Below, one piece after another: positions 15,666-47,105 of a stretch of 64,000 bases of DNA; position 1 is the first letter of the stretch, and each line of letters starts with the position of its first letter. A model generated the notes under the pieces. It saw nothing but the letters and a program-made list of their open reading frames with translations. It was not told the DNA's origin and searched no databases. This stretch comes from an uncultured Clostridia bacterium. Lineage in GTDB: Bacteria; Bacillota; Clostridia; TANB77; CAG-465. Location of the stretch: positions 37,354 through 101,353 of the forward strand of contig CALXES010000006.1 of the NCBI GenBank assembly GCA_944387385.1, given 5' to 3'. Both the position numbers and the translations under genes were made by a program.

Positions 15666-15730
15666 TGAATATAATAAAACAAAATTTTTAATAAAAATAA
15701 TTTAAAATAATAACCAGAGGTGTGGTGGTT

Positions 15731-16162
15731 ATGAAAATTATAAAGGTATGTAGTTTTGTTGCAAACTATACACATTCGTGTATAGTTGCTAATAATTTTA
15801 TATCTAAAGAATTTGATAAAGCAAAGGTGATATATATAAATGAAAACAGCGAAAAAGAAAAATTAAAGAAAATTGTAAATAAGTATTTTAAAAACATTAA
15901 CAAAAAGATAATATATATGGAATGGCTAAATGAGGAAATTGTAAATGACTATGTAAATGAAAATATTGTACTTGTAGTAAATGGTAGTGAAAGCTTTATA
16001 TCAAAGGTAAATGAATATATGTGTTTTATTCAAAATGAGATTTTAGTTATTAATTGTTATAATATAATGGACATAAAATCTAATATTGCAGATATTATAT
16101 CTAGTCATGATTATTACTTAAATAGTGATGGAATTCAAATACGAAAGGATAAAACTTGTTAA
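15731..16162 (+). CDS. Hypothetical protein, no family recognised
   Basis: ATG at 15731 preceded by SD AGAGGTG. 143 aa with no motif recognised. Confidence 0.5.
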   Translation: MKIIKVCSFVANYTHSCIVANNFISKEFDKAKVIYINENSEKEKLKKIVNKYFKNINKKIIYMEWLNEEIVNDYVNENIVLVVNGSESFISKVNEYMCFIQNEILVINCYNIMDIKSNIADIISSHDYYLNSDGIQIRKDKTC

Positions 16163-17684: not shown

Positions 17685-18548
17685 ATGAGTACAGAAGAAT
17701 TATATACATATATACTTACAGTATTTGAAGGAAAAAGTTTTGAAAATTTAATTTTAAGCAAAAGAAATACTGAGTTTAAAGAGTCATTTGAAAATGATTA
17801 CAGAGAGAAAATCATTAATGCTATGAATACAGATGAATATACAAAAGTGATGGATAAGTTATCCAAAAGCTTTTTAACTAACCTTGCCAAGGGAACAAAT
17901 GGTAAGAAATTTACAAAAGAAGATTGTAATAAAATACTAGAAATATATCATAAATTAATAGAAAATATTTCTGACTTTGATAAAAACTATGAAAGAATAG
18001 CTTTAGAACACTTTACAGAAGTAAGAAATTTTATAAATGAATTTACTTCAAGAGAAGAAAATGGAATGTCAAAATCTTCATATTCACCAGAATTTATTTT
18101 AAAAATTTTAGATGTAAAAGATGATGAACTTAAAGGAAAATCATTAGACATAGGATGCGGAAAAAATGGTGAACTTGTAAAATATTTAGCTTCAAAAGGA
18201 GTACAATCTTTTGGAATAGATATGGAATGTGAAGATAGTGATAGTTTAGAACAAGAAGATTGGCTTATTAAAGATTATCCTGAAAATACATATGATTTGA
18301 TTACATCAAATTTAACTTTTACAAAATACTTTAATGATGCAAATTCGGAAGAGCAAAATGATGAGGAGTGTATAGAGTATGCTCAAAGCTATATGAAAAT
18401 ACTTAATTCATTAAAAGTAGGAGGAAAATGGCATTATGTTCCTTCAGTTACTTTTATTGAAGAACTATTGCCAGAAGATAAATTTGAAGTAACAAATAGC
18501 TTTATTAATGACAATATAATGAGAACAGTAATAAAAAGAATAAAATAA
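17685..18548 (+). CDS. Hypothetical protein with C-terminal class I SAM-methyltransferase-like domain
   Basis: Motif I LDIGCGKNG, then DLITSN and LKVGGKW. The N-terminal ~140 aa are unrecognised. Confidence 0.55.
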   Translation: MSTEELYTYILTVFEGKSFENLILSKRNTEFKESFENDYREKIINAMNTDEYTKVMDKLSKSFLTNLAKGTNGKKFTKEDCNKILEIYHKLIENISDFDKNYERIALEHFTEVRNFINEFTSREENGMSKSSYSPEFILKILDVKDDELKGKSLDIGCGKNGELVKYLASKGVQSFGIDMECEDSDSLEQEDWLIKDYPENTYDLITSNLTFTKYFNDANSEEQNDEECIEYAQSYMKILNSLKVGGKWHYVPSVTFIEELLPEDKFEVTNSFINDNIMRTVIKRIK

Positions 18549-21514: not shown

Positions 21515-21543
21515 AAAAGTGGAAGACTTTGTCTTCCACTTTT
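21515..21543. terminator. Bidirectional terminator between uvrA and the minus-strand micro-ORFs
   Basis: Perfect 13-bp stem AAAAGTGGAAGAC / GTCTTCCACTTTT. Confidence 0.85.
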
Positions 21544-21558
21544 ATGTATTATGTGCAA

Positions 21559-21717
21559 TTAGCAACAACAGCAACAAAGAACGATTATGATAAGTATTAT
21601 CCAAATACAGCAACAGTTTCCGCCTCCGAATAATCCATTACCACCAAATCCGCAATTACCGCATCCGTTACATCCGCAACCTCCGCAGTTATTACATCCG
21701 CATCTTTCATCCATCAT
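21559..21717 (-). CDS. 52-aa Cys/Gly-rich micro-protein with hydrophobic C-terminal segment (architecture resembles the YjcZ / tiny-TM family)
   Basis: Hand translation gives MMDERCGCNNCGGCGCNGCGNCGFGGNGLFGGGNCCCIWIILIIIVLCCCCC. SD GAGAGGTG lies 8 nt upstream of the ATG and the terminator 21515-21543 is downstream. Not in the ORF track because it is under 60 aa. Confidence 0.65.
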   Translation of the reverse strand: MMDERCGCNNCGGCGCNGCGNCGFGGNGLFGGGNCCCIWIILIIIVLCCCCC

Positions 21718-21750
21718 CTAAATTCACCTCTCTTTGTTATATATAAACTT

Positions 21751-21882
21751 CTAATTACTTTGAAAAAAAGTATCGAAGTTTAATGGTGTAGATGAATTCT
21801 TTTCTTGACATATAAAATACAGAATAATAAGTATAAGTACTAGGACTATTAGCCATACTAGATTATCACTATCTATGCACAT
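21751..21882 (-). CDS. 43-aa single-TM micro-protein
   Basis: Hand translation gives MCIDSDNLVWLIVLVLILIILYFICQEKNSSTPLNFDTFFQSN. SD AAGGAG lies 8 nt upstream. It ends 33 nt before the Cys/Gly-rich ORF, so the two are probably co-transcribed. Confidence 0.5.
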   Translation of the reverse strand: MCIDSDNLVWLIVLVLILIILYFICQEKNSSTPLNFDTFFQSN

Positions 21883-22052
21883 ACATTTCACTCCTTTGTT
21901 TGTTGAGCTTTACTCAACTTAATATACTATATTCTAAATATATTTTTTTGTTACAAAATAAAAATACAAAAATATAAAAGATACAATTAGTTCTTGAATA
22001 ATTATGTTACGTTATGATATAATCAAAACGGATTAAAAAAGGTGGAATAAGT

Positions 22053-23428: not shown

Positions 23429-23944
23429 ATGATAATTTTGATTGCAGGTGCATCTCATACTGGAAAAACATTACTTGCTCAAAGGCTACTAGAGAAATAT
23501 AATTATCCGTATTTATCCATAGATCATTTAAAGATGGGACTTATTAGAAGTAAAAATACCAATTTAACCCCAGATGATAGTGATGAAAAATTAACTAAAT
23601 ATTTATGGCCTATAGTAAGAGAAATAATTAAGACTAATATAGAGAATGATCAAAATTTAATAGTTGAAGGATGCTATATTCCTTTTAATTATAAAGAAGA
23701 TTTTAAGGGAGAATATTTAGACAAAATTAAATATGTTTGCTTAATTATGACTAATAAATACATAGATGAACATTATAATGATATAGTAAAGTTTGAAAAT
23801 AGAATAGAAAAGCGATTATATAAAGCAGATATTAGCATGAAAAAGTTAAAAGAAGAAAATGAAAATAATTTAAAAATGTGTAAAAAATATAATAATGAGT
23901 ATATATTAATAAATGAAAAATATGATGTGGATTTTAAAATATAG
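23429..23944 (+). CDS. P-loop kinase-like protein (AAA/2-phosphoglycerate-kinase-like)
   Basis: Walker A AGASHTGKT at the N-terminus. 171 aa. Confidence 0.5.
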   Translation: MIILIAGASHTGKTLLAQRLLEKYNYPYLSIDHLKMGLIRSKNTNLTPDDSDEKLTKYLWPIVREIIKTNIENDQNLIVEGCYIPFNYKEDFKGEYLDKIKYVCLIMTNKYIDEHYNDIVKFENRIEKRLYKADISMKKLKEENENNLKMCKKYNNEYILINEKYDVDFKI

Positions 23945-26548: not shown

Positions 26549-28096
26549 ATGAAATTACCAGATAATTTAAAAAGGATTAGAAAAGAAAACAATTTATCTC
26601 AAGAACAGCTTGCAGAAAAATTAGGTGTATCTAGACAGGCAGTTTCAAAATGGGAATCAGGACAAAGCTATCCAGAAATGGATAAAGTATTAAATATTTG
26701 TAAGCTATTTAATTATAATATAGATGAATTACTTAATGAGAATGTTAAAGAAGTAAGAGAAGAGACTCAATCAAAAAAGAATTTAGATAAATTTGTAAAA
26801 GACTTTTTTAATTATATTACTAAGACAGCAGATATGTTTGCTAGCATGAAATTTAAGCAAAGAGTAAAGTGCATTATAGAGCAAATTATAACTGCTTTGG
26901 TTATTGTAATAATTGTAAGTATAATTGGAGCGATAGGGGGATCTATTTTTGAAAGCTTATTTGGATGGATTAATAATAATGTATATTCAGTACTTAGAAG
27001 TATAGTTTCTTCAATTTATTTAATATTTAGTCTAGTATTAGGAATTGTTGTTTTACTACATATATTTAAGGTAAGATATTTAGATTACTATGATATTATT
27101 GTAGAAAAAGAAGAGGAAAAAAATAATGAAGCAAATGATGATGTTGAAAAATCAAATAATGATATACAAAGTGCAAAACTAATTTTAGATAATAAAAGAG
27201 AAAAGATAATAATAAGAGATCCTAAGCATAGCGAATCTAAATTTTTGACTGCAATTGTTAAGCTTATTATGATTGGAATAAAAGCATTTGTTGGCTTTTG
27301 CACTTTGATGTTTGTATTTTCACTTGTGTGTTTAATAATAGCTCTTGTATGTAGTTTTATGTTTATAAAGACTGGAATAATTTTTGTTGGAGCTTTAATT
27401 GGAATTTTGGCGGCAATTCTTGCAAATGTTATTATAATAGAGTTAGTATATAATTTTATAGTAAATAGAAAAACATCTAAAACTAGAATAGGGATATGTT
27501 TTCTTTCAGCTATTATAGGAGTAGGCCTTGGAATTGGACTTGTACTTGTTGGTGTAAAAGATTTTAATTATATAGAAACAATAGATGAAGCAACAGCCAA
27601 GAAAACTACTGTAGAGTTTAATATGGAAGACAATACTATGATAGATACATATCAAGATATTGAATTTATAGAAGAAGATAGAGATAATATATTAATAGAA
27701 GTTGAACACTCAGAGTATTTTGAGCCAAGAATTAGAAAAACAAACAACGTAATTTCTGTATATAATTATCAAACTGATTCATCAGGATTTGAATTGATTC
27801 GTCAAAATATAGATGATATAAATAATAAACAGATTATTAATTATTATTCTACAAAAGTATATGTACATGCATCAAAGGAAAATATTGAAAAACTTGAGCA
27901 AAATAGTAGTGAGAGAGCAAGAAAGTATAGAGAATATGAGCAGAGAATATCAGATTTAGAAGATGAAATTACAGAACTTGAAGATACAATAAATAATAAT
28001 GAAGAAAAAATAACAGAACTTGAAAATACAATAGATGAAAAAGATAGTCAAATAGAGTCATTAGAAGATACAATAAACGAATATAGATCTATCTAA
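26549..28096 (+). CDS. Membrane-anchored XRE-family HTH protein with C-terminal coiled-coil
   Basis: N-terminal HTH LSQEQLAEKLGVSRQAVSKWESG, several TM segments, and a C-terminal heptad-like acidic repeat (ISDLEDEITELEDTINNNEEKITELENTIDEKDSQIESLEDTINEY). Confidence 0.75.
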   Translation: MKLPDNLKRIRKENNLSQEQLAEKLGVSRQAVSKWESGQSYPEMDKVLNICKLFNYNIDELLNENVKEVREETQSKKNLDKFVKDFFNYITKTADMFASMKFKQRVKCIIEQIITALVIVIIVSIIGAIGGSIFESLFGWINNNVYSVLRSIVSSIYLIFSLVLGIVVLLHIFKVRYLDYYDIIVEKEEEKNNEANDDVEKSNNDIQSAKLILDNKREKIIIRDPKHSESKFLTAIVKLIMIGIKAFVGFCTLMFVFSLVCLIIALVCSFMFIKTGIIFVGALIGILAAILANVIIIELVYNFIVNRKTSKTRIGICFLSAIIGVGLGIGLVLVGVKDFNYIETIDEATAKKTTVEFNMEDNTMIDTYQDIEFIEEDRDNILIEVEHSEYFEPRIRKTNNVISVYNYQTDSSGFELIRQNIDDINNKQIINYYSTKVYVHASKENIEKLEQNSSERARKYREYEQRISDLEDEITELEDTINNNEEKITELENTIDEKDSQIESLEDTINEYRSI

Positions 28097-28718: not shown

Positions 28719-30923
28719 TTGAAAAAGGTATTATTAAAAATAGGAGGAATGACTTGTAGTGCTTGTTCTTCAGGTCTAGAAAAATATTTAAATAAACAAG
28801 ATGGGGTAACAGCATCAGTAAATTTAGTTATGAATAATGCTGCAATCGAATATGATGATGAAAAATTATCAATAGATGATATAGAAAAATTTATATCTAA
28901 AGCAGGATTTGAAAGTCTTGGAATAGATAAATTTGAAAAAGAAGAAAAGAGAAAAGCAAACGAGAAATATAAATTAATAGTACTTGCTATTCTTGCTGTT
29001 ATTACGTTGTATGTTTCTATGTCACATATGGTGGGACTACCACAAATACCATTTTTAGATATGTCAGAATGTCCATTAAACTATGCCATTTCTTTATTTA
29101 TTCTTGCATGTATAGTAATGTTTATTGGAAGAGATATTTTAAAAAATGGAATTAAAAACTTAATACATTTAACGCCAAATATGGATACTCTAGTTACAAT
29201 AGGAGTATTTGCAAGTATGGCTTATAGTATTTATTCTACGTACATGATTTTTAGTGGAGATAATACCTATACATCAAAATTATATTTTGAATCTGTAGCT
29301 ATAATTATTGCATTCATTAAAATTGGTAAATACATTGAAGGTAGAAATAAAGATAAAACAAAAGAAGCTTTACAAGAGCTAATGTCAATTACACCTAATC
29401 TTGCAATAGTACTAAGAAATGGAAAAGAAAAAACAGTAACTCTTGATGAAATAAAAAAGGGGGATATTGTTGTTTGTAAACCTGGGCAAAAGATAGCAGT
29501 AGATGGTACAGTAACAGATGGAACAACTCATATAGATGAGTCTTTTATAACAGGAGAAAGTGTACCTGTAAAAAGGGAAAAAGGAGATAAAGTAATAGCT
29601 GGAAGTATTAATTATGAAGGAGCCATTTATTATGAAGCAGAAAAAATTGGAAAAGAATCAACAGTTTCAGAAATTGTAAGAATGGTTGCAGAAGCAACTA
29701 ATACCAAAGCTCCTATTTCAAGAATTGCAGATAAAATTAGTGGTATTTTTGTACCAGTTGTAATAGCTCTTGCAGTTATTTGTTTTATTGCTTGGCTTGT
29801 AATATCTAAAGATATAGCTACTGCAATAAATACTTTTGTAAGTATCTTAGTTGTTGCATGTCCTTGCAGTTTAGGTCTTGCTACACCTCTTGCAATAGTT
29901 ATTGCATCAGGAGAGTGTACAAAACGAGGACTTCTTGTAAAATCAAGTGAAGCATTAGAAAATGCACATAAAGTAAAAACAATTGTATTAGATAAAACTG
30001 GGACAATTACAAAAGGAAAACTTACTGTTTCAAAAATATTTAATTATAGTGATTTAAAAGATAAAGAAATATTGAAAGTTATAGCAAGTATTGAAAAAAA
30101 GTCAGAGCATCCTATTGCAAGAGCAATTGTAAATGAGGCAGAAGAAAAAAATATTGAGCTTTTAGAAATTAGTGACTTTAAAGCAATACCAGGATTTGGT
30201 GTATATGCAAAAATAAATAATGATAAGTTTTATATAGGAAATAAAAAGCTAATGGATGACAATAATATTAAAGCTAATGTAGAAAATGATTTAGATTCTC
30301 TTATTACTCAAGGAAATAGTGTTCTTTTTGTTTCAAAAAATGGAGAATTAATTGCTTTGATTGGAGTAAAAGATGTTATAAAGGAAAATGTAAAAGAAGT
30401 GATTTCCAAAATTAAAGAAAAAAATATTAATGTTATAATGCTTACAGGAGATAACGAAAAGACAGCACAGGTAATAGCAAATGAAGTAGGAATAGAAAAT
30501 GTAAGAGCTAATGTCTTGCCGTCTGAGAAAGCACAAATTATAAAAGAGCTAAAAAAAGATGGACTTGTTATGATGTGTGGAGACGGAATAAATGATAGTG
30601 TAAGCTTAGTTACAGCAGATATTGGTGTATCAGTTTCTACTGGAACAGATATTGCAATGGATAGTAGTAATGTTGTAATTATGAATGATAATTTAGATAG
30701 AATTAATGATTTGATTATTATAAGTAAAAAGACTATAATAAATATTAAAGAAAATCTATTTTGGGCATTTATATATAATATATGTATGATACCAGTTGCT
30801 ATGGGATTATTAAGTCCATTTGGAATAACAATGAATCCAATGTTTGGAGCACTTGCTATGACACTTAGTAGCATAACAGTTGTATTAAATGCACTTAGAC
30901 TAAAAAATATTAAAATAAAATGA
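28719..30923 (+). CDS. copA: Copper-translocating P1B-type ATPase
   Basis: N-terminal GMTCSACS HMA domain, CPC in the TM region, DKTGTIT phosphorylation site and GDGINDS hinge. TTG start with SD AAGGAG. Confidence 0.9.
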   Translation: MKKVLLKIGGMTCSACSSGLEKYLNKQDGVTASVNLVMNNAAIEYDDEKLSIDDIEKFISKAGFESLGIDKFEKEEKRKANEKYKLIVLAILAVITLYVSMSHMVGLPQIPFLDMSECPLNYAISLFILACIVMFIGRDILKNGIKNLIHLTPNMDTLVTIGVFASMAYSIYSTYMIFSGDNTYTSKLYFESVAIIIAFIKIGKYIEGRNKDKTKEALQELMSITPNLAIVLRNGKEKTVTLDEIKKGDIVVCKPGQKIAVDGTVTDGTTHIDESFITGESVPVKREKGDKVIAGSINYEGAIYYEAEKIGKESTVSEIVRMVAEATNTKAPISRIADKISGIFVPVVIALAVICFIAWLVISKDIATAINTFVSILVVACPCSLGLATPLAIVIASGECTKRGLLVKSSEALENAHKVKTIVLDKTGTITKGKLTVSKIFNYSDLKDKEILKVIASIEKKSEHPIARAIVNEAEEKNIELLEISDFKAIPGFGVYAKINNDKFYIGNKKLMDDNNIKANVENDLDSLITQGNSVLFVSKNGELIALIGVKDVIKENVKEVISKIKEKNINVIMLTGDNEKTAQVIANEVGIENVRANVLPSEKAQIIKELKKDGLVMMCGDGINDSVSLVTADIGVSVSTGTDIAMDSSNVVIMNDNLDRINDLIIISKKTIINIKENLFWAFIYNICMIPVAMGLLSPFGITMNPMFGALAMTLSSITVVLNALRLKNIKIK

Positions 30924-30939: not shown

Positions 30940-31518
30940 ATGAGTATTACAAGAGAGGAAGCTTTAAAATTATTAAAAGAATATAATAGTGAACCATTTC
31001 ACTTAAGACATGGACTTACAGTAGAAGGTGTAATGAGATATTTTGCTAGAGATTTAGGATATGGTAACGAAGAAGAAAAGTGGGGAATAGTAGGACTATT
31101 ACATGATTTAGATTTTGAAAAGTATCCAGAAGAGCATTGTATAAAATCTCAAGAAATAATGAGAGAAAATGGAATAGATGAAGATATAATTCATGCAACA
31201 GCGAGTCATGGATATAATTTAACAGTAGATATTAAACCTGAACATGAGATGGAAAAGGTACTTTATGCAGTAGACGAACTTACAGGTCTAATAGGCGCTG
31301 CAGTTCTTATGAGACCTTCAAAGAGTTCTAAAGATTTAGAGCTTAAATCAATGAAGAAAAAGTTTAAAGATAAAAGATTTGCTGCAGGCTGTTCAAGAGA
31401 TGTTATAGCTACAGGCGCAGAGATGCTTGGATGGAGCTTAGATGATTTAATGGATAAAACAATACTTGCAATGAGAGATTGTGAAGATAAAGTAAATGAA
31501 GAAATGGGAGAAAATTAA
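30940..31518 (+). CDS. HD-domain phosphohydrolase-like protein
   Basis: H..(LLHDLD) HD motif. 192 aa. Confidence 0.65.
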   Translation: MSITREEALKLLKEYNSEPFHLRHGLTVEGVMRYFARDLGYGNEEEKWGIVGLLHDLDFEKYPEEHCIKSQEIMRENGIDEDIIHATASHGYNLTVDIKPEHEMEKVLYAVDELTGLIGAAVLMRPSKSSKDLELKSMKKKFKDKRFAAGCSRDVIATGAEMLGWSLDDLMDKTILAMRDCEDKVNEEMGEN

Positions 31519-45254: not shown

Positions 45255-47105
45255 ATGAAGAAAAGAGGAATAAAAATTGTAGTCTCATTTATACTCTTTA
45301 TGTTAGCTATTATTTTTAATTTTAATAATGATTGGATTAATAAAGGTTTATATATTATTTCATATTTAATAGTTGGATTTGAAATAATTAAAAAAGCTAT
45401 AAGAAATATATTTAGAGGAAAAGTTTTTGATGAAAACTTTTTAATGACAGTTGCAACAATTGGTGCATTTGGAATAGGAGAGTTTCCAGAAGCTGTTGCA
45501 GTTATGCTATTTTATCAAGTAGGAGAACTATTTCAAAGCTATGCTGTAGATAAATCAAGAAAATCTATTTCTAGCTTAATGGATATTAGACCAGATTATG
45601 CAAATATTGAAAGAGATGGGAAAGTAGAAAGAGTTGATCCAGATGAGGTGAATGTTGGAGATATAATTATAATAAAACCAGGTGAAAAAGTTCCACTTGA
45701 CGGAATTATAATGGAAGGAAAATCTAGTCTTGACACTAAGGCCTTAACAGGAGAATCTTTGCCAAAAGATGTAGAAGAAGGAGAAGAAGTTTTAAGTGGA
45801 TGTATTAATTTAAATGGTGTTTTAAGAGTGCAGATTACTAAAGAATTTGAAGAGTCTACAGTTAGCAAAATACTTGATTTAGTGGAAAATGCAAGTAGCA
45901 AAAAATCTAAATCAGAAAATTTTATTACAAAGTTTGCAACATATTATACACCAATAGTTGTTTTAATTGCTTTAGTACTTGCAATAGTTCCACCACTTAT
46001 AATAGATGGAGCTATGTTTTCAGATTGGATATATAGAGCATTATCGTTTCTTGTAGTATCTTGTCCTTGTGCACTTGTAATTTCTATTCCACTTAGCTTT
46101 TTTGGTGGAATAGGTGCAGCGTCAAAAATAGGAGTACTAATTAAAGGTAGTAACTATTTAGAAGCAATATCAAATGCAGAAATAGTTGTTTTTGATAAAA
46201 CTGGAACACTTACCGAAGGGAAATTTGAAGTTCAGGAAGTATCTTCTATAGACATGAGTAAAGAAGAATTATTAAAATATGCAGCATATGCAGAAAATTA
46301 TTCAAATCATCCAATCTCAATATCTGTTAAGATGGCATACGGAAAAGAAATAGATAAATCAAAAATTGAATCAACCCAGGAGTTATCTGGACTGGGAATA
46401 GTTGCTAGAGTCTTAGATAAAGAAGTTTTTGTTGGTAATGACAAACTTATGAAGGAAAAAGAGATTGAATATACTAAGTGTGATGAGGTAGGGACTATAT
46501 TATATGTTGCAGTCGATGGAAAATATGTTGGGTATATACTGATAGCAGATAGAATAAAACGTGACTCATATAATGCAATAAAAGGTTTAAAAAAGAATGG
46601 AATAAAGAAAACTGTTATGCTTACAGGAGATAAGAGAAATGTTGGAGAGACTGTAGCAAAAAAACTCGGACTAGATAAAGTCTATGCTGAGCTTTTGCCG
46701 GATGGAAAAGTAAAAAGAGTAGAAAAGCTTTTAAAAGAAAAAAGTGATAATGGAAAATTAGTATTTGTAGGAGATGGAATAAATGATGCACCTGTTTTAG
46801 CTTTATCAGATATAGGTATTGCAATGGGTGCTTTAGGATCAGATGCTGCAATAGAAGCTGCAGATGTTGTAATTATGACAGATGAGCCATCTAAAATTGT
46901 AAACGCTATACAGTTATCTAAAAGAACAATGAATATTGTTAAACAGAATATATTCTTTGCAATAGGAGTTAAAATACTAGTGCTTATTTTAAGTGCTCTA
47001 GGAATTTCAACTATGTGGGAAGCAGTATTTGCAGATGTTGGTGTATCCGTTATAGCAATAATTAATTCACTTAGAGTTTTAAATGTAAAAAATATATCTA
47101 AATAA
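45255..47105 (+). CDS. cadA: Cd/Zn/Co-type P1B ATPase lacking a fused HMA domain
   Basis: CPC motif in the TM region, DKTGTLT and GDGINDAP. The protein starts directly with TM helices. Confidence 0.85.
   Translation: MKKRGIKIVVSFILFMLAIIFNFNNDWINKGLYIISYLIVGFEIIKKAIRNIFRGKVFDENFLMTVATIGAFGIGEFPEAVAVMLFYQVGELFQSYAVDKSRKSISSLMDIRPDYANIERDGKVERVDPDEVNVGDIIIIKPGEKVPLDGIIMEGKSSLDTKALTGESLPKDVEEGEEVLSGCINLNGVLRVQITKEFEESTVSKILDLVENASSKKSKSENFITKFATYYTPIVVLIALVLAIVPPLIIDGAMFSDWIYRALSFLVVSCPCALVISIPLSFFGGIGAASKIGVLIKGSNYLEAISNAEIVVFDKTGTLTEGKFEVQEVSSIDMSKEELLKYAAYAENYSNHPISISVKMAYGKEIDKSKIESTQELSGLGIVARVLDKEVFVGNDKLMKEKEIEYTKCDEVGTILYVAVDGKYVGYILIADRIKRDSYNAIKGLKKNGIKKTVMLTGDKRNVGETVAKKLGLDKVYAELLPDGKVKRVEKLLKEKSDNGKLVFVGDGINDAPVLALSDIGIAMGALGSDAAIEAADVVIMTDEPSKIVNAIQLSKRTMNIVKQNIFFAIGVKILVLILSALGISTMWEAVFADVGVSVIAIINSLRVLNVKNISK

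Follow-up and report, generated by a model that had tools for sequence, protein, structure and literature searches.

Two micro-ORFs occupy the uvrA-rlmD gap

We analyzed a 64-kb stretch of contig CALXES010000006.1 from an uncultured Clostridia bacterium (the whole stretch of 64,000 nucleotides is called the window here, and positions are counted from its first nucleotide). The 540-nt gap between uvrA and rlmD, whose products were identified as UvrA and RlmD by NCBIfam models, is occupied in this window by two minus-strand micro-open reading frames (micro-ORFs), which we call ORF A and ORF B. A first-pass annotation of this DNA had described the two frames and their surroundings, and when we re-read the strand sequence between 21400 and 22100 together with the ORF listing, the coordinates, the 33-nt spacing and both translations (ORF A, MCIDSDNLVWLIVLVLILIILYFICQEKNSSTPLNFDTFFQSN; ORF B, MMDERCGCNNCGGCGCNGCGNCGFGGNGLFGGGNCCCIWIILIIIVLCCCCC) were reproduced. 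The GC-rich patch noticed there was also evident, with a local GC content over the head of ORF B of up to 0.49 (measured in 90-nt windows) versus 0.27 in the whole window, and the strong bidirectional terminator described downstream of the pair proved to have the expected stem with T-runs on both strands. Terminator-like sites numbered three in this region, versus 0.2 expected from shuffled sequences, and the Rfam matches at the pair locus were sub-threshold only and are attributable to the terminator.

Together, these features, shown in Table 1, make up a two-gene minus-strand operon in which a sigma-K-like promoter and a 5' hairpin are followed by ORF A and ORF B, each with its own ribosome binding site, and by a strong terminator. 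An alternative ORF A start in the ORF listing, GTG at 21891, abuts the Shine-Dalgarno sequence, and it is the ATG that relatives conserve.

Table 1. Features of the ORF A-ORF B operon, in order of transcription.
Feature	Position	Strand	Remarks
-35 element GTAACA	21954-21949	minus	contains the 'AC' typical of sigma-K promoters
-10 element AATATAGTA	21933-21925	minus	mother-cell sigma type CATAnnnTA, with C replaced by A
Leader hairpin GUUGAGU-AAA-GCUCAAC	21918-21902	minus	minimum-free-energy fold of the whole transcript; near the predicted mRNA 5' end
Shine-Dalgarno sequence AAGGAG of ORF A	21896-21891	minus	8 nt 5' of the ATG; kept in all orthologous loci
ORF A, 43-aa single-pass membrane peptide	21882-21751	minus	ATG start at 21882
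Shine-Dalgarno sequence GAGAGGTG of ORF B	21732-21725	minus	read from the sequence
ORF B, 52 aa	21717-21559	minus	ATG at 21717, 33 nt past the ORF A stop codon
ORF B head, codons 1-34	21717-21616	minus	conserved MMDERCGC, variable-length Cys/Gly/Asn repeat, NGLFGGGN
ORF B tail anchor, codons 35-52	21615-21562	minus	CCC-IWIILIIIVL-CCCCC
ORF B stop codon	21561-21559	minus	read from the sequence
Bidirectional intrinsic terminator	21515-21543	both	13-bp stem, T-runs on each strand; common to the convergent uvrA

Both frames are conserved among relatives

Relatives of the window were drawn from GTDB species representatives by an RlmD search, with RlmD identities of 68-93%, and were without exception uncultured Clostridia or Clostridiaceae metagenome-assembled genomes (MAGs) from animal guts. 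The pair was found in about 10 related genomes, two of which differ in the genes around it. Seven loci (L001-L006 and L010) contain both ORFs in the same position and orientation, with the same Shine-Dalgarno sequences and an equivalent terminator; both are also present in L031, from a JGI metagenome, and in L007 the pair and the same upstream block are separated from rlmD by an inserted gene. In four short metagenome contigs (L018-L021), which were traced from the sole match to ORF B among 1.84 billion representative proteins, an ORF A homolog lies directly upstream of ORF B and the flanking genes differ. This recurrence, including that with different flanks, shows the pair to behave as a unit. 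A hairpin equivalent to the window's terminator lies 3' of ORF B in all relatives. The retention of frames, gene order, Shine-Dalgarno sequences and terminator thus bears out the earlier proposal of two genuine, co-transcribed micro-ORFs, and the conservation of frame and adjacency on which that proposal depended was seen in L001-L007, L010, L031 and L018-L021.

The orthologs of ORF B vary from 46 to 54 aa through in-frame insertions and deletions that are confined to the Cys/Gly repeat, while MMDERCGC and NGLFGGGNCCCIWIILIIIVLCCCC are kept. Codon differences among them comprised 421 synonymous versus 178 non-synonymous changes, distributed over the first, second and third codon positions as 192, 125 and 512, a pattern that indicates purifying selection on the predicted peptide. 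Orthologs of ORF A occur in L001-L007, L010 and L031, with a more divergent one in L018, and retain the helix, the NSS motif and the NFDTFF tail. This frame is less constrained than ORF B (261 synonymous versus 322 non-synonymous differences; 279, 128 and 374 at positions 1, 2 and 3), with an excess at the third position still present. Judged from these comparisons, both ORF A and ORF B are very probably genes.

A 44-aa ORF antisense to ORF B (21587-21721, plus strand; Pro/Gln-rich, MISIIQIQQQFPPPNNPLPP...) was rejected as a real gene, as it has no conserved start codon. Its frame is open in every relative because the Cys, Gly, Ile and Asn codons of ORF B give no stop in that register. The third codon positions of the two frames coincide, so that the third-position excess alone cannot choose between them; we preferred ORF B because of its Shine-Dalgarno sequence, its start codon and the conservation of its protein at the level of the family described below. 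A separate peculiarity of one contig, L019, is a run of N and a tRNA-like segment at 787-930, spliced into the gene downstream of the pair, which is probably a scaffolding chimera.

Sequence and predicted structure of the two peptides

A recount of ORF B agreed with the first-pass figure of 15 Cys and 13 Gly in 52 residues; its Cys share is 29%, versus 1.0% in six long genes of the window, and its head holds 10 Cys. The tail anchor has a Kyte-Doolittle hydrophobicity of 3.26, varies little or not at all within the close clade, and forms the core of the wider family. AlphaFold2, run on a 29-sequence alignment, predicted a helix at residues 35-51 with a predicted local distance difference test score (pLDDT) of about 83 and a disordered head with a pLDDT below 50, in keeping with the layout of a Gly/Cys head and a tiny C-terminal hydrophobic helix that had been read from the sequence.

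ORF A has an acidic N-terminus, a helix (LVWLIVLVLILIILYFI) with a Lys directly after it, and a tail (NSSTPLNFDTFF), and its best 17-aa window reaches a Kyte-Doolittle value of 3.44.

Within the sequence encoding the ORF B head (21648-21702) we observed a TGCGGA-rich 24-nt tandem repeat of 2.3 copies, and TGC accounts for 8 of the 15 ORF B Cys codons versus 9 of 55 in the six long genes. The in-frame differences in repeat length among orthologs suggest replication slippage.

ORF B belongs to a broad family in Clostridia

A profile of seven ORF B orthologs (A1) matched 48 proteins at E<=10, and a profile of 26 sequences (A3) matched at least 79 proteins at E<=0.1. These peptides are 30-95 aa long and share the core G-F-G-G-(N)-x-C-[IL]-W-I-I-L-I-I-I-V-L-C-C-C-C; the family is defined by this hydrophobic helix collared by Cys runs and preceded by a Gly/Asn/Cys low-complexity head, and a second Gly/Asn/Cys tail often lies C-terminal to the core. 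All of the members found come from Clostridia genomes or gut metagenomes, with source names that point to Oscillospiraceae and Lachnospiraceae MAGs, and all are unnamed or 'hypothetical' bar one that is misnamed. For one member, P0101, the assembly collection lists 558 blocks. Family members elsewhere are preceded by the Shine-Dalgarno sequences AAAGGAGG or AAAGGAGT. Based on these profile matches, ORF B very likely belongs to a broad, uncurated family in Clostridia and is not an isolated oddity.

Curated resources did not contain this family. Pfam and NCBIfam gave nothing for ORF B at E<=10 and no significant match for ten family members, so that the search for a characterized family that might claim ORF B found none. 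Single-sequence searches of a 5.8-billion word-indexed set returned no homologs, the exact ORF A and ORF B sequences were not in a 15-billion-protein collection, and the core motif strings had no match in a literature search. Scanning metagenomes with the alignment of ORF B produced 427 pattern matches, none of which was confirmed by tblastn, probably owing to low complexity. Against plasmids, tblastn with its low-complexity filter on matched neither ORF B nor a YjcZ-like control, on account of that filter.

The paired upstream membrane peptide noted in the first-pass annotation is not a trait of the family. ORF A accompanies ORF B solely in the window's clade and in one sister lineage (L018), and no ORF A-like peptides were found when they were sought beside distant ORF B family members, which are monocistronic or accompanied by a tandem paralog.

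Several members have two helices. Eight tandem fusions (P0004, P0010, P0032, P0038, P0039, P0041, P0048 and P0082) start with MSDL[TS]AT, and one fusion, from a Lachnospiraceae MAG, has been named 'chorion class high-cysteine HCB protein 13' by NCBI, a name that is evidently composition-driven and wrong. At L041 (2873-3129; also in L042), tandem family paralogs, MCGNNCSAGDNSCLWIIILIILISCCCGN and P0079, lie behind a single sigma-K-type promoter in an arrangement that resembles the tandem paralogy of YjcZ-type peptides.

A sigma-K-type promoter precedes the family genes

Upstream of ORF A, L001-L007, L010 and L031 share an identical 17-nt stretch of non-coding DNA (GAATATAGTATATTAAG), with GTAAC upstream of it at a fixed distance. 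In the window the spacing is AC-N16-AATATAGTA, versus AC-N15-17-CATAnnAT in the other lineages. In other lineages the -10 element reads CATATTAT, CATACTAT, CATAGGAT, CATACGAT, CATAAGAT, CATAGTAT, CATAGAAT or CATAAAAT, and at all family loci a -35 element GTAAC or G[GT]AAC (ATCAC or GCAC at some) is located 16-17 nt 5' of it; distant GC-rich lineages have G[GT]AAC-N16/17-CATAnnATG at corresponding positions. Formalized as AC-N15-17-[C/A]ATAnnnT, this motif was found at every one of the 15 loci of the initial set, preceding the first start codon of the operon by 49-102 nt. Its per-locus chance of occurrence was 0.016-0.22 in shuffles and 0.01-0.28 when 150-nt windows of natural sequence were taken from these loci. 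The motif was likewise present in each of the eight lineages inspected after the motif had been fixed (L026, L027, L029, L032-34, L035, L038, L039 and L041), for which the joint chance is about 1e-8. At L041 it is located upstream of the first of the two tandem genes.

Sigma-K promoters of C. difficile have an 'AC' -35 element (PMC3789822), and the sigma-K promoter in general combines this AC with a CATAnnnT(A) -10 element about 16-17 nt away (PMC3789822; PMC517825). Saujet et al. described a -10 element common to the sigma-E and sigma-K promoters of C. difficile (canonical CATATTAT; CATATAAT), and Eichenberger et al. found the same two-block promoter structure in B. subtilis (PMC517825). The shared AC and -10 motif, taken with these two descriptions, led us to class the family promoters as sigma-K type. 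On the strength of this motif, it appears somewhat probable that transcription of the operon depends on a mother-cell sigma factor.

A leader hairpin of differing sequence was predicted in the same place in seven of eight leaders, each folded singly. RNAalifold found no consensus pairs in the leader alignment, as the hairpin lengths differ and the alignment broke. In distant family members, too, a short hairpin separates the predicted -10 element from the Shine-Dalgarno sequence (e.g. GCGATTGAGAAATCGC and AGTGATAGAAATATCACT; L032-L034 at about 2430-2460, L035 at about 2440-2480, L039 at about 2955-2975), and a 5' leader hairpin may be general to the transcripts of this family. Hairpins at the 5' end are known as stabilizers of Firmicute mRNAs in general, and the leader hairpin is consistent with such a role.

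Genomic context of the family

Family genes are located among unrelated housekeeping genes at sites that differ by lineage, such as uvrA/rlmD in the window, mutL/groEL in L032-34 and nusG-like/ruvA in L029. In L026 the family gene is directly upstream of spoIIIAA-AE, and in L038 it follows yabP-yqfD-phoH. Among the scanned ORFs of the window, and likewise in the flanking DNA of about 12 independent loci of the family, we found neither maturation enzymes (YcaO, SagB-type dehydrogenase, radical SAM or lanthionine enzymes) nor a dedicated exporter.

In two unrelated lineages (L027/L028, 2931-3362; L035-L037, e.g. L035, 2754-3518), the family gene is followed immediately, on its own strand, by a gene for a 4Fe-4S ferredoxin-domain protein, after which L027 has one for a pyridine-nucleotide disulfide oxidoreductase. 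This neighbor could be a coincidence or a redox link.

The plus strand of the window encodes two heavy-metal P-type ATPases (28719-30923 and 45255-47105), 7 and 24 kb from ORF B, one a CopA-type (copper) enzyme with a CopZ-like domain at its N-terminus and the other of the Cd/Zn type; no linkage of these genes to the pair was seen in relatives. A 515-aa protein encoded at 26549-28096 (plus strand) has an N-terminal Xre/RstR-like helix-turn-helix (residues 1-70), and the remaining ~440 residues are without an NCBIfam match. Pfam gave nothing for six ORFs of 146-287 aa (15722-16162, 17685-18548, 23429-23944, 30940-31518, and, on the minus strand, 51131-51652 and 51776-52330); the first three of these also have no NCBIfam match, and two of the six closely flank the uvrA-rlmD region.

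A possible role in the spore envelope, and its alternatives

In order to account for these observations, we propose, tentatively and with slightly less than even confidence, that the locus is a late mother-cell operon that makes a tail-anchored, thiol-rich peptide of the spore envelope. The operon would be transcribed late in the mother cell during sporulation, and ORF B would be tail-anchored into a mother-cell-derived membrane, most plausibly the outer forespore membrane, with its head of 10 Cys facing the assembling coat. Its thiols might then be disulfide-linked to each other or to Cys-rich coat or exosporium proteins, or might bind metal, and ORF B would serve to anchor or cross-link the envelope close to the membrane. 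Of the roles floated in the first-pass annotation, the spore-related one gains indirect support from the promoter, and the sporulation genes next to the family gene in L026 and L038 also speak for this reading of the operon. The cross-linking role is proposed because of the analogy with CdeC, CdeM, CotY, CotZ and ExsY (PMC6101409) and with SpoVM (PMC10730256). A structural role of ORF B in the spore envelope, which is argued from analogy, is held with more reserve than the operon reading as a whole. ORF A would be a clade-specific partner, and its conserved NSS..NFDTFF tail would probably touch ORF B or hold it in position. That this tail is cytoplasmic, beside the ORF B head, is a guess suggested by the acidic N-terminus and by the Lys after the helix.

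Several points weigh against assigning the operon to the spore envelope. The -10 element of the window's clade starts with AATA and not CATA, and the same bases pass a scan for sigma-70 sites as GTAACA-17-TATAGT, a moderate sigma-A promoter that matches at 9 of 12 positions; shuffled sequences yield at least as many such sites as the region does. Sigma-K and sigma-A promoters are similar in geometry. The hydrophobic core between the two Cys runs of ORF B is only 10 residues long, and the helix is membrane-spanning only if the Cys collars are counted into it. Recognizable sporulation genes were not present in the 64-kb window, and the role given to ORF A is a guess.

The first alternative, which we regard as unlikely, is that ORF B is a vegetative, membrane-tethered thiol or metal buffer, analogous to metallothioneins or to the eukaryotic Cys-rich transmembrane module CYSTM, that is transcribed from a sigma-A-like promoter and chelates Cu, Zn or Cd or quenches oxidants or electrophiles. 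The CxC and CxxC spacings of the head would suit such a peptide, and its Cys-patch helix at the extreme C-terminus fits the description of CYSTM (PMC2804304). The promoter of the window's clade can be read as GTAACA-17-TATAGT; however, the -35 sequences in GC-rich lineages (GGAACC, GCACC and ATCACC) are poor matches to TTGACA, and what is conserved is the CATA and AC of mother-cell promoters. Relatives of ORF B show a faint Pfam likeness to metallothionein family 11 (E=0.084) and to WBP-1 (E=0.039), which is attributable to shared composition, and the CYSTM and metallothionein models were never significant. The window does contain two heavy-metal P-type ATPases, but at the distances given above these are not syntenic with the pair in relatives, and a metal-sensing regulator or operator was not found adjacent to the gene at any locus.

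It is less likely again that the products are membrane-perturbing peptides of the holin or type I toxin kind, for example for mother-cell lysis, in which ORF A and ORF B would form a pair of effector and modulator. Each product has a single strongly hydrophobic helix and fewer than 55 residues, a size typical of type I toxins (PMC10730256), and a late mother-cell promoter would suit the timing of lysis. This explanation leaves the extreme, conserved Cys load and the Gly/Asn/Cys head unexplained, and most family members have no ORF A beside them. Neither a conserved antisense promoter or antisense RNA nor an Rfam match was found, and the genes, stably sited among housekeeping functions, have no mobile or addiction-module context.

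We consider it quite improbable that ORF B is the precursor of a ribosomally synthesized and post-translationally modified peptide (RiPP), either a thiazole/oxazole-modified microcin (TOMM) of the streptolysin S, microcin B17 or heterocycloanthracin type or another Cys-modified peptide, with its enzymes encoded elsewhere. Precursors such as SagA, McbA, ClosA and heterocycloanthracin have Cys/Gly-rich cores and poly-Cys runs, and some are encoded at a distance from the enzymes that mature them; the in-frame changes in the number of ORF B repeats resemble the CXX repeats of these precursors, which vary by strain. Against this, neither a maturase nor an exporter is adjacent in the window or at the ~12 independent family loci, the best-conserved part is the hydrophobic helix instead of a leader peptide and there is no leader-cleavage motif, the place of the gene among core genes is fixed within a lineage, and a sporulation-type promoter would be unusual for a bacteriocin.

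Finally, that these are chance ORFs without a product in an AT-rich intergenic spacer, as might be supposed from the absence of the exact sequences from the 15-billion-protein collection, the lack of a curated family match and the locally Cys-rich out-of-frame translations in a 27% GC window, is already refuted by the comparative data, within their reach: frames, starts, stops and Shine-Dalgarno sequences are kept across relatives with 68-93% RlmD identity and in a lineage with other flanks, length changes are in frame, synonymous changes are in excess, and the peptide core persists in GC-rich organisms despite quite different codons.

Significance

Few Bacillus coat proteins are conserved in gut Clostridia, in which transmission is driven by spores. 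If the proposed link to sporulation is true, ORF B would be a new membrane-anchored and extremely thiol-rich component of the poorly known spore envelopes of these bacteria. More broadly, we speculate that spore-forming Clostridia have widespread 'cysteine-collar' tail-anchored micropeptides, a bacterial counterpart of CYSTM, which sigma-K would install in the outer forespore membrane, where a thiol-dense, metal-binding or S-acylated surface would nucleate or tether the coat or exosporium, with ORF A as a dedicated partner in the window's clade; in this full form the idea is doubtful. The conserved promoter motif could help to predict late mother-cell genes in uncultured Clostridia. Whatever its function, ORF B offers a clean bacterial Cys-collared tail anchor for studying helix insertion, cross-linking, metallation and acylation. 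The pair also exposes an annotation gap, as it is missing from a collection of 15 billion proteins and its family is without a Pfam or NCBIfam model, yet one member (P0101) is listed in 558 blocks; small proteins are systematically missed by annotation.

Comparison with known systems

The first-pass annotation had likened ORF B to the YjcZ 'tiny TM' (transmembrane) sporulation peptides while noting that it went beyond them. The likeness in architecture stood: YjcZ peptides, too, have fewer than 60 residues and join a Gly-rich head to a single, very hydrophobic I/L/V helix, and they likewise have paralogs that are sometimes in tandem. A likeness in regulation is probable, as yjcZ of B. subtilis has been assigned to the sigma-K regulon (PMC517825) and the ORF B family has sigma-K-type promoters. 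Membership of the YjcZ family did not stand. The TIGR01732 model (NCBIfam, 26 positions, cut-off 21.35 bits) gave nothing at E<=10 for ORF B, two of its orthologs and 10 members of the wider family, whereas two YjcZ-like positive controls, composed for this comparison, matched it with 53.1 and 43.6 bits (E=1.8e-14 and 1.7e-11), and the model was therefore both present and sensitive. This result agrees with the earlier view that ORF B lies beyond the YjcZ family. The helices differ as well (C-I-W-I-I-L-I-I-I-V-L-CCCC in the ORF B family versus GFALIVVLFILLIIVG in the composed controls), and unlike YjcZ, ORF B is 29% Cys, has Cys collars on both sides of its helix and, in the window's clade, is accompanied by ORF A. 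Judged by sequence, ORF B would be an analog of YjcZ and not a member of its family.

CYSTM was described by Venancio and Aravind as a module of eukaryotic tail-anchored proteins, found in eukaryotes only, that consists of a C-terminal transmembrane helix with 5-6 Cys, of which 3-4 are consecutive, followed by an acidic residue, and roles in chelation or redox chemistry at the membrane were proposed for it (PMC2804304). Like ORF B, CYSTM proteins are small, with a low-complexity N-terminal region (cytoplasmic in CYSTM) and a Cys-patch helix at the extreme C-terminus. However, the Cys residues lie within the helix in CYSTM, whereas in ORF B the CCC and CCCCC runs flank a Cys-free I/L core, and in place of the trailing acidic residue ORF B ends in CCCCC, with some relatives ending in ...CCCND or ...CCCDDKC. 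The Pfam CYSTM model (PF12734) did not match ORF B or 10 relatives at E<=10, and the ORF B family was found only in Clostridia genomes and gut metagenomes, in contrast to the eukaryotic distribution of CYSTM. The likeness is probably one of convergence rather than homology. With metallothioneins, the resemblance of ORF B is limited to the CxC spacing; among metallothionein models, a single relative gave a sub-threshold match to Metallothio_11 (E=0.084, 13.5 bits versus a cut-off of 27).

The precursors of TOMMs (SagA, McbA and heterocycloanthracin) also have a variable repeat number. Their layout places a leader at the N-terminus and a core rich in Cys, Ser and Thr at the C-terminus, whereas the Cys/Gly part of ORF B is N-terminal, from residue 6, and its I/L/V helix is C-terminal; the ORF B family differs from them further in having no maturase genes near any family locus, a housekeeping context and a sporulation-type promoter.

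Among peptides of the mother cell, SpoVM and CmpA of B. subtilis (26-37 aa) serve at the outer forespore membrane as anchors or checkpoints of coat assembly (PMC10730256). Unlike ORF B, both are sigma-E-dependent and not Cys-rich, and they have no sequence similarity to it; SpoVM is an amphipathic surface helix and not a transmembrane tail anchor as predicted for ORF B.

Cys-rich proteins build the outer spore layers of clostridia and Bacillus through disulfide cross-linking, and CdeM carries low-complexity N/G/C repeats (NGNNGGNNNNC) (PMC6101409). CdeC and CdeM of C. difficile and CotY, CotZ and ExsY of Bacillus are late mother-cell products that are Cys-rich and disulfide-assembled into the outermost spore layers. 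These are soluble, self-assembling proteins of 160-405 aa with about 9% Cys, whereas ORF B is a peptide of 52 aa with 29% Cys and a predicted membrane helix, and there is no detectable sequence similarity between them. ORF B would thus be akin to kinds already known, small sporulation-associated membrane peptides and Cys-rich spore proteins, and in the window's clade a putative dedicated partner peptide, ORF A, is added.

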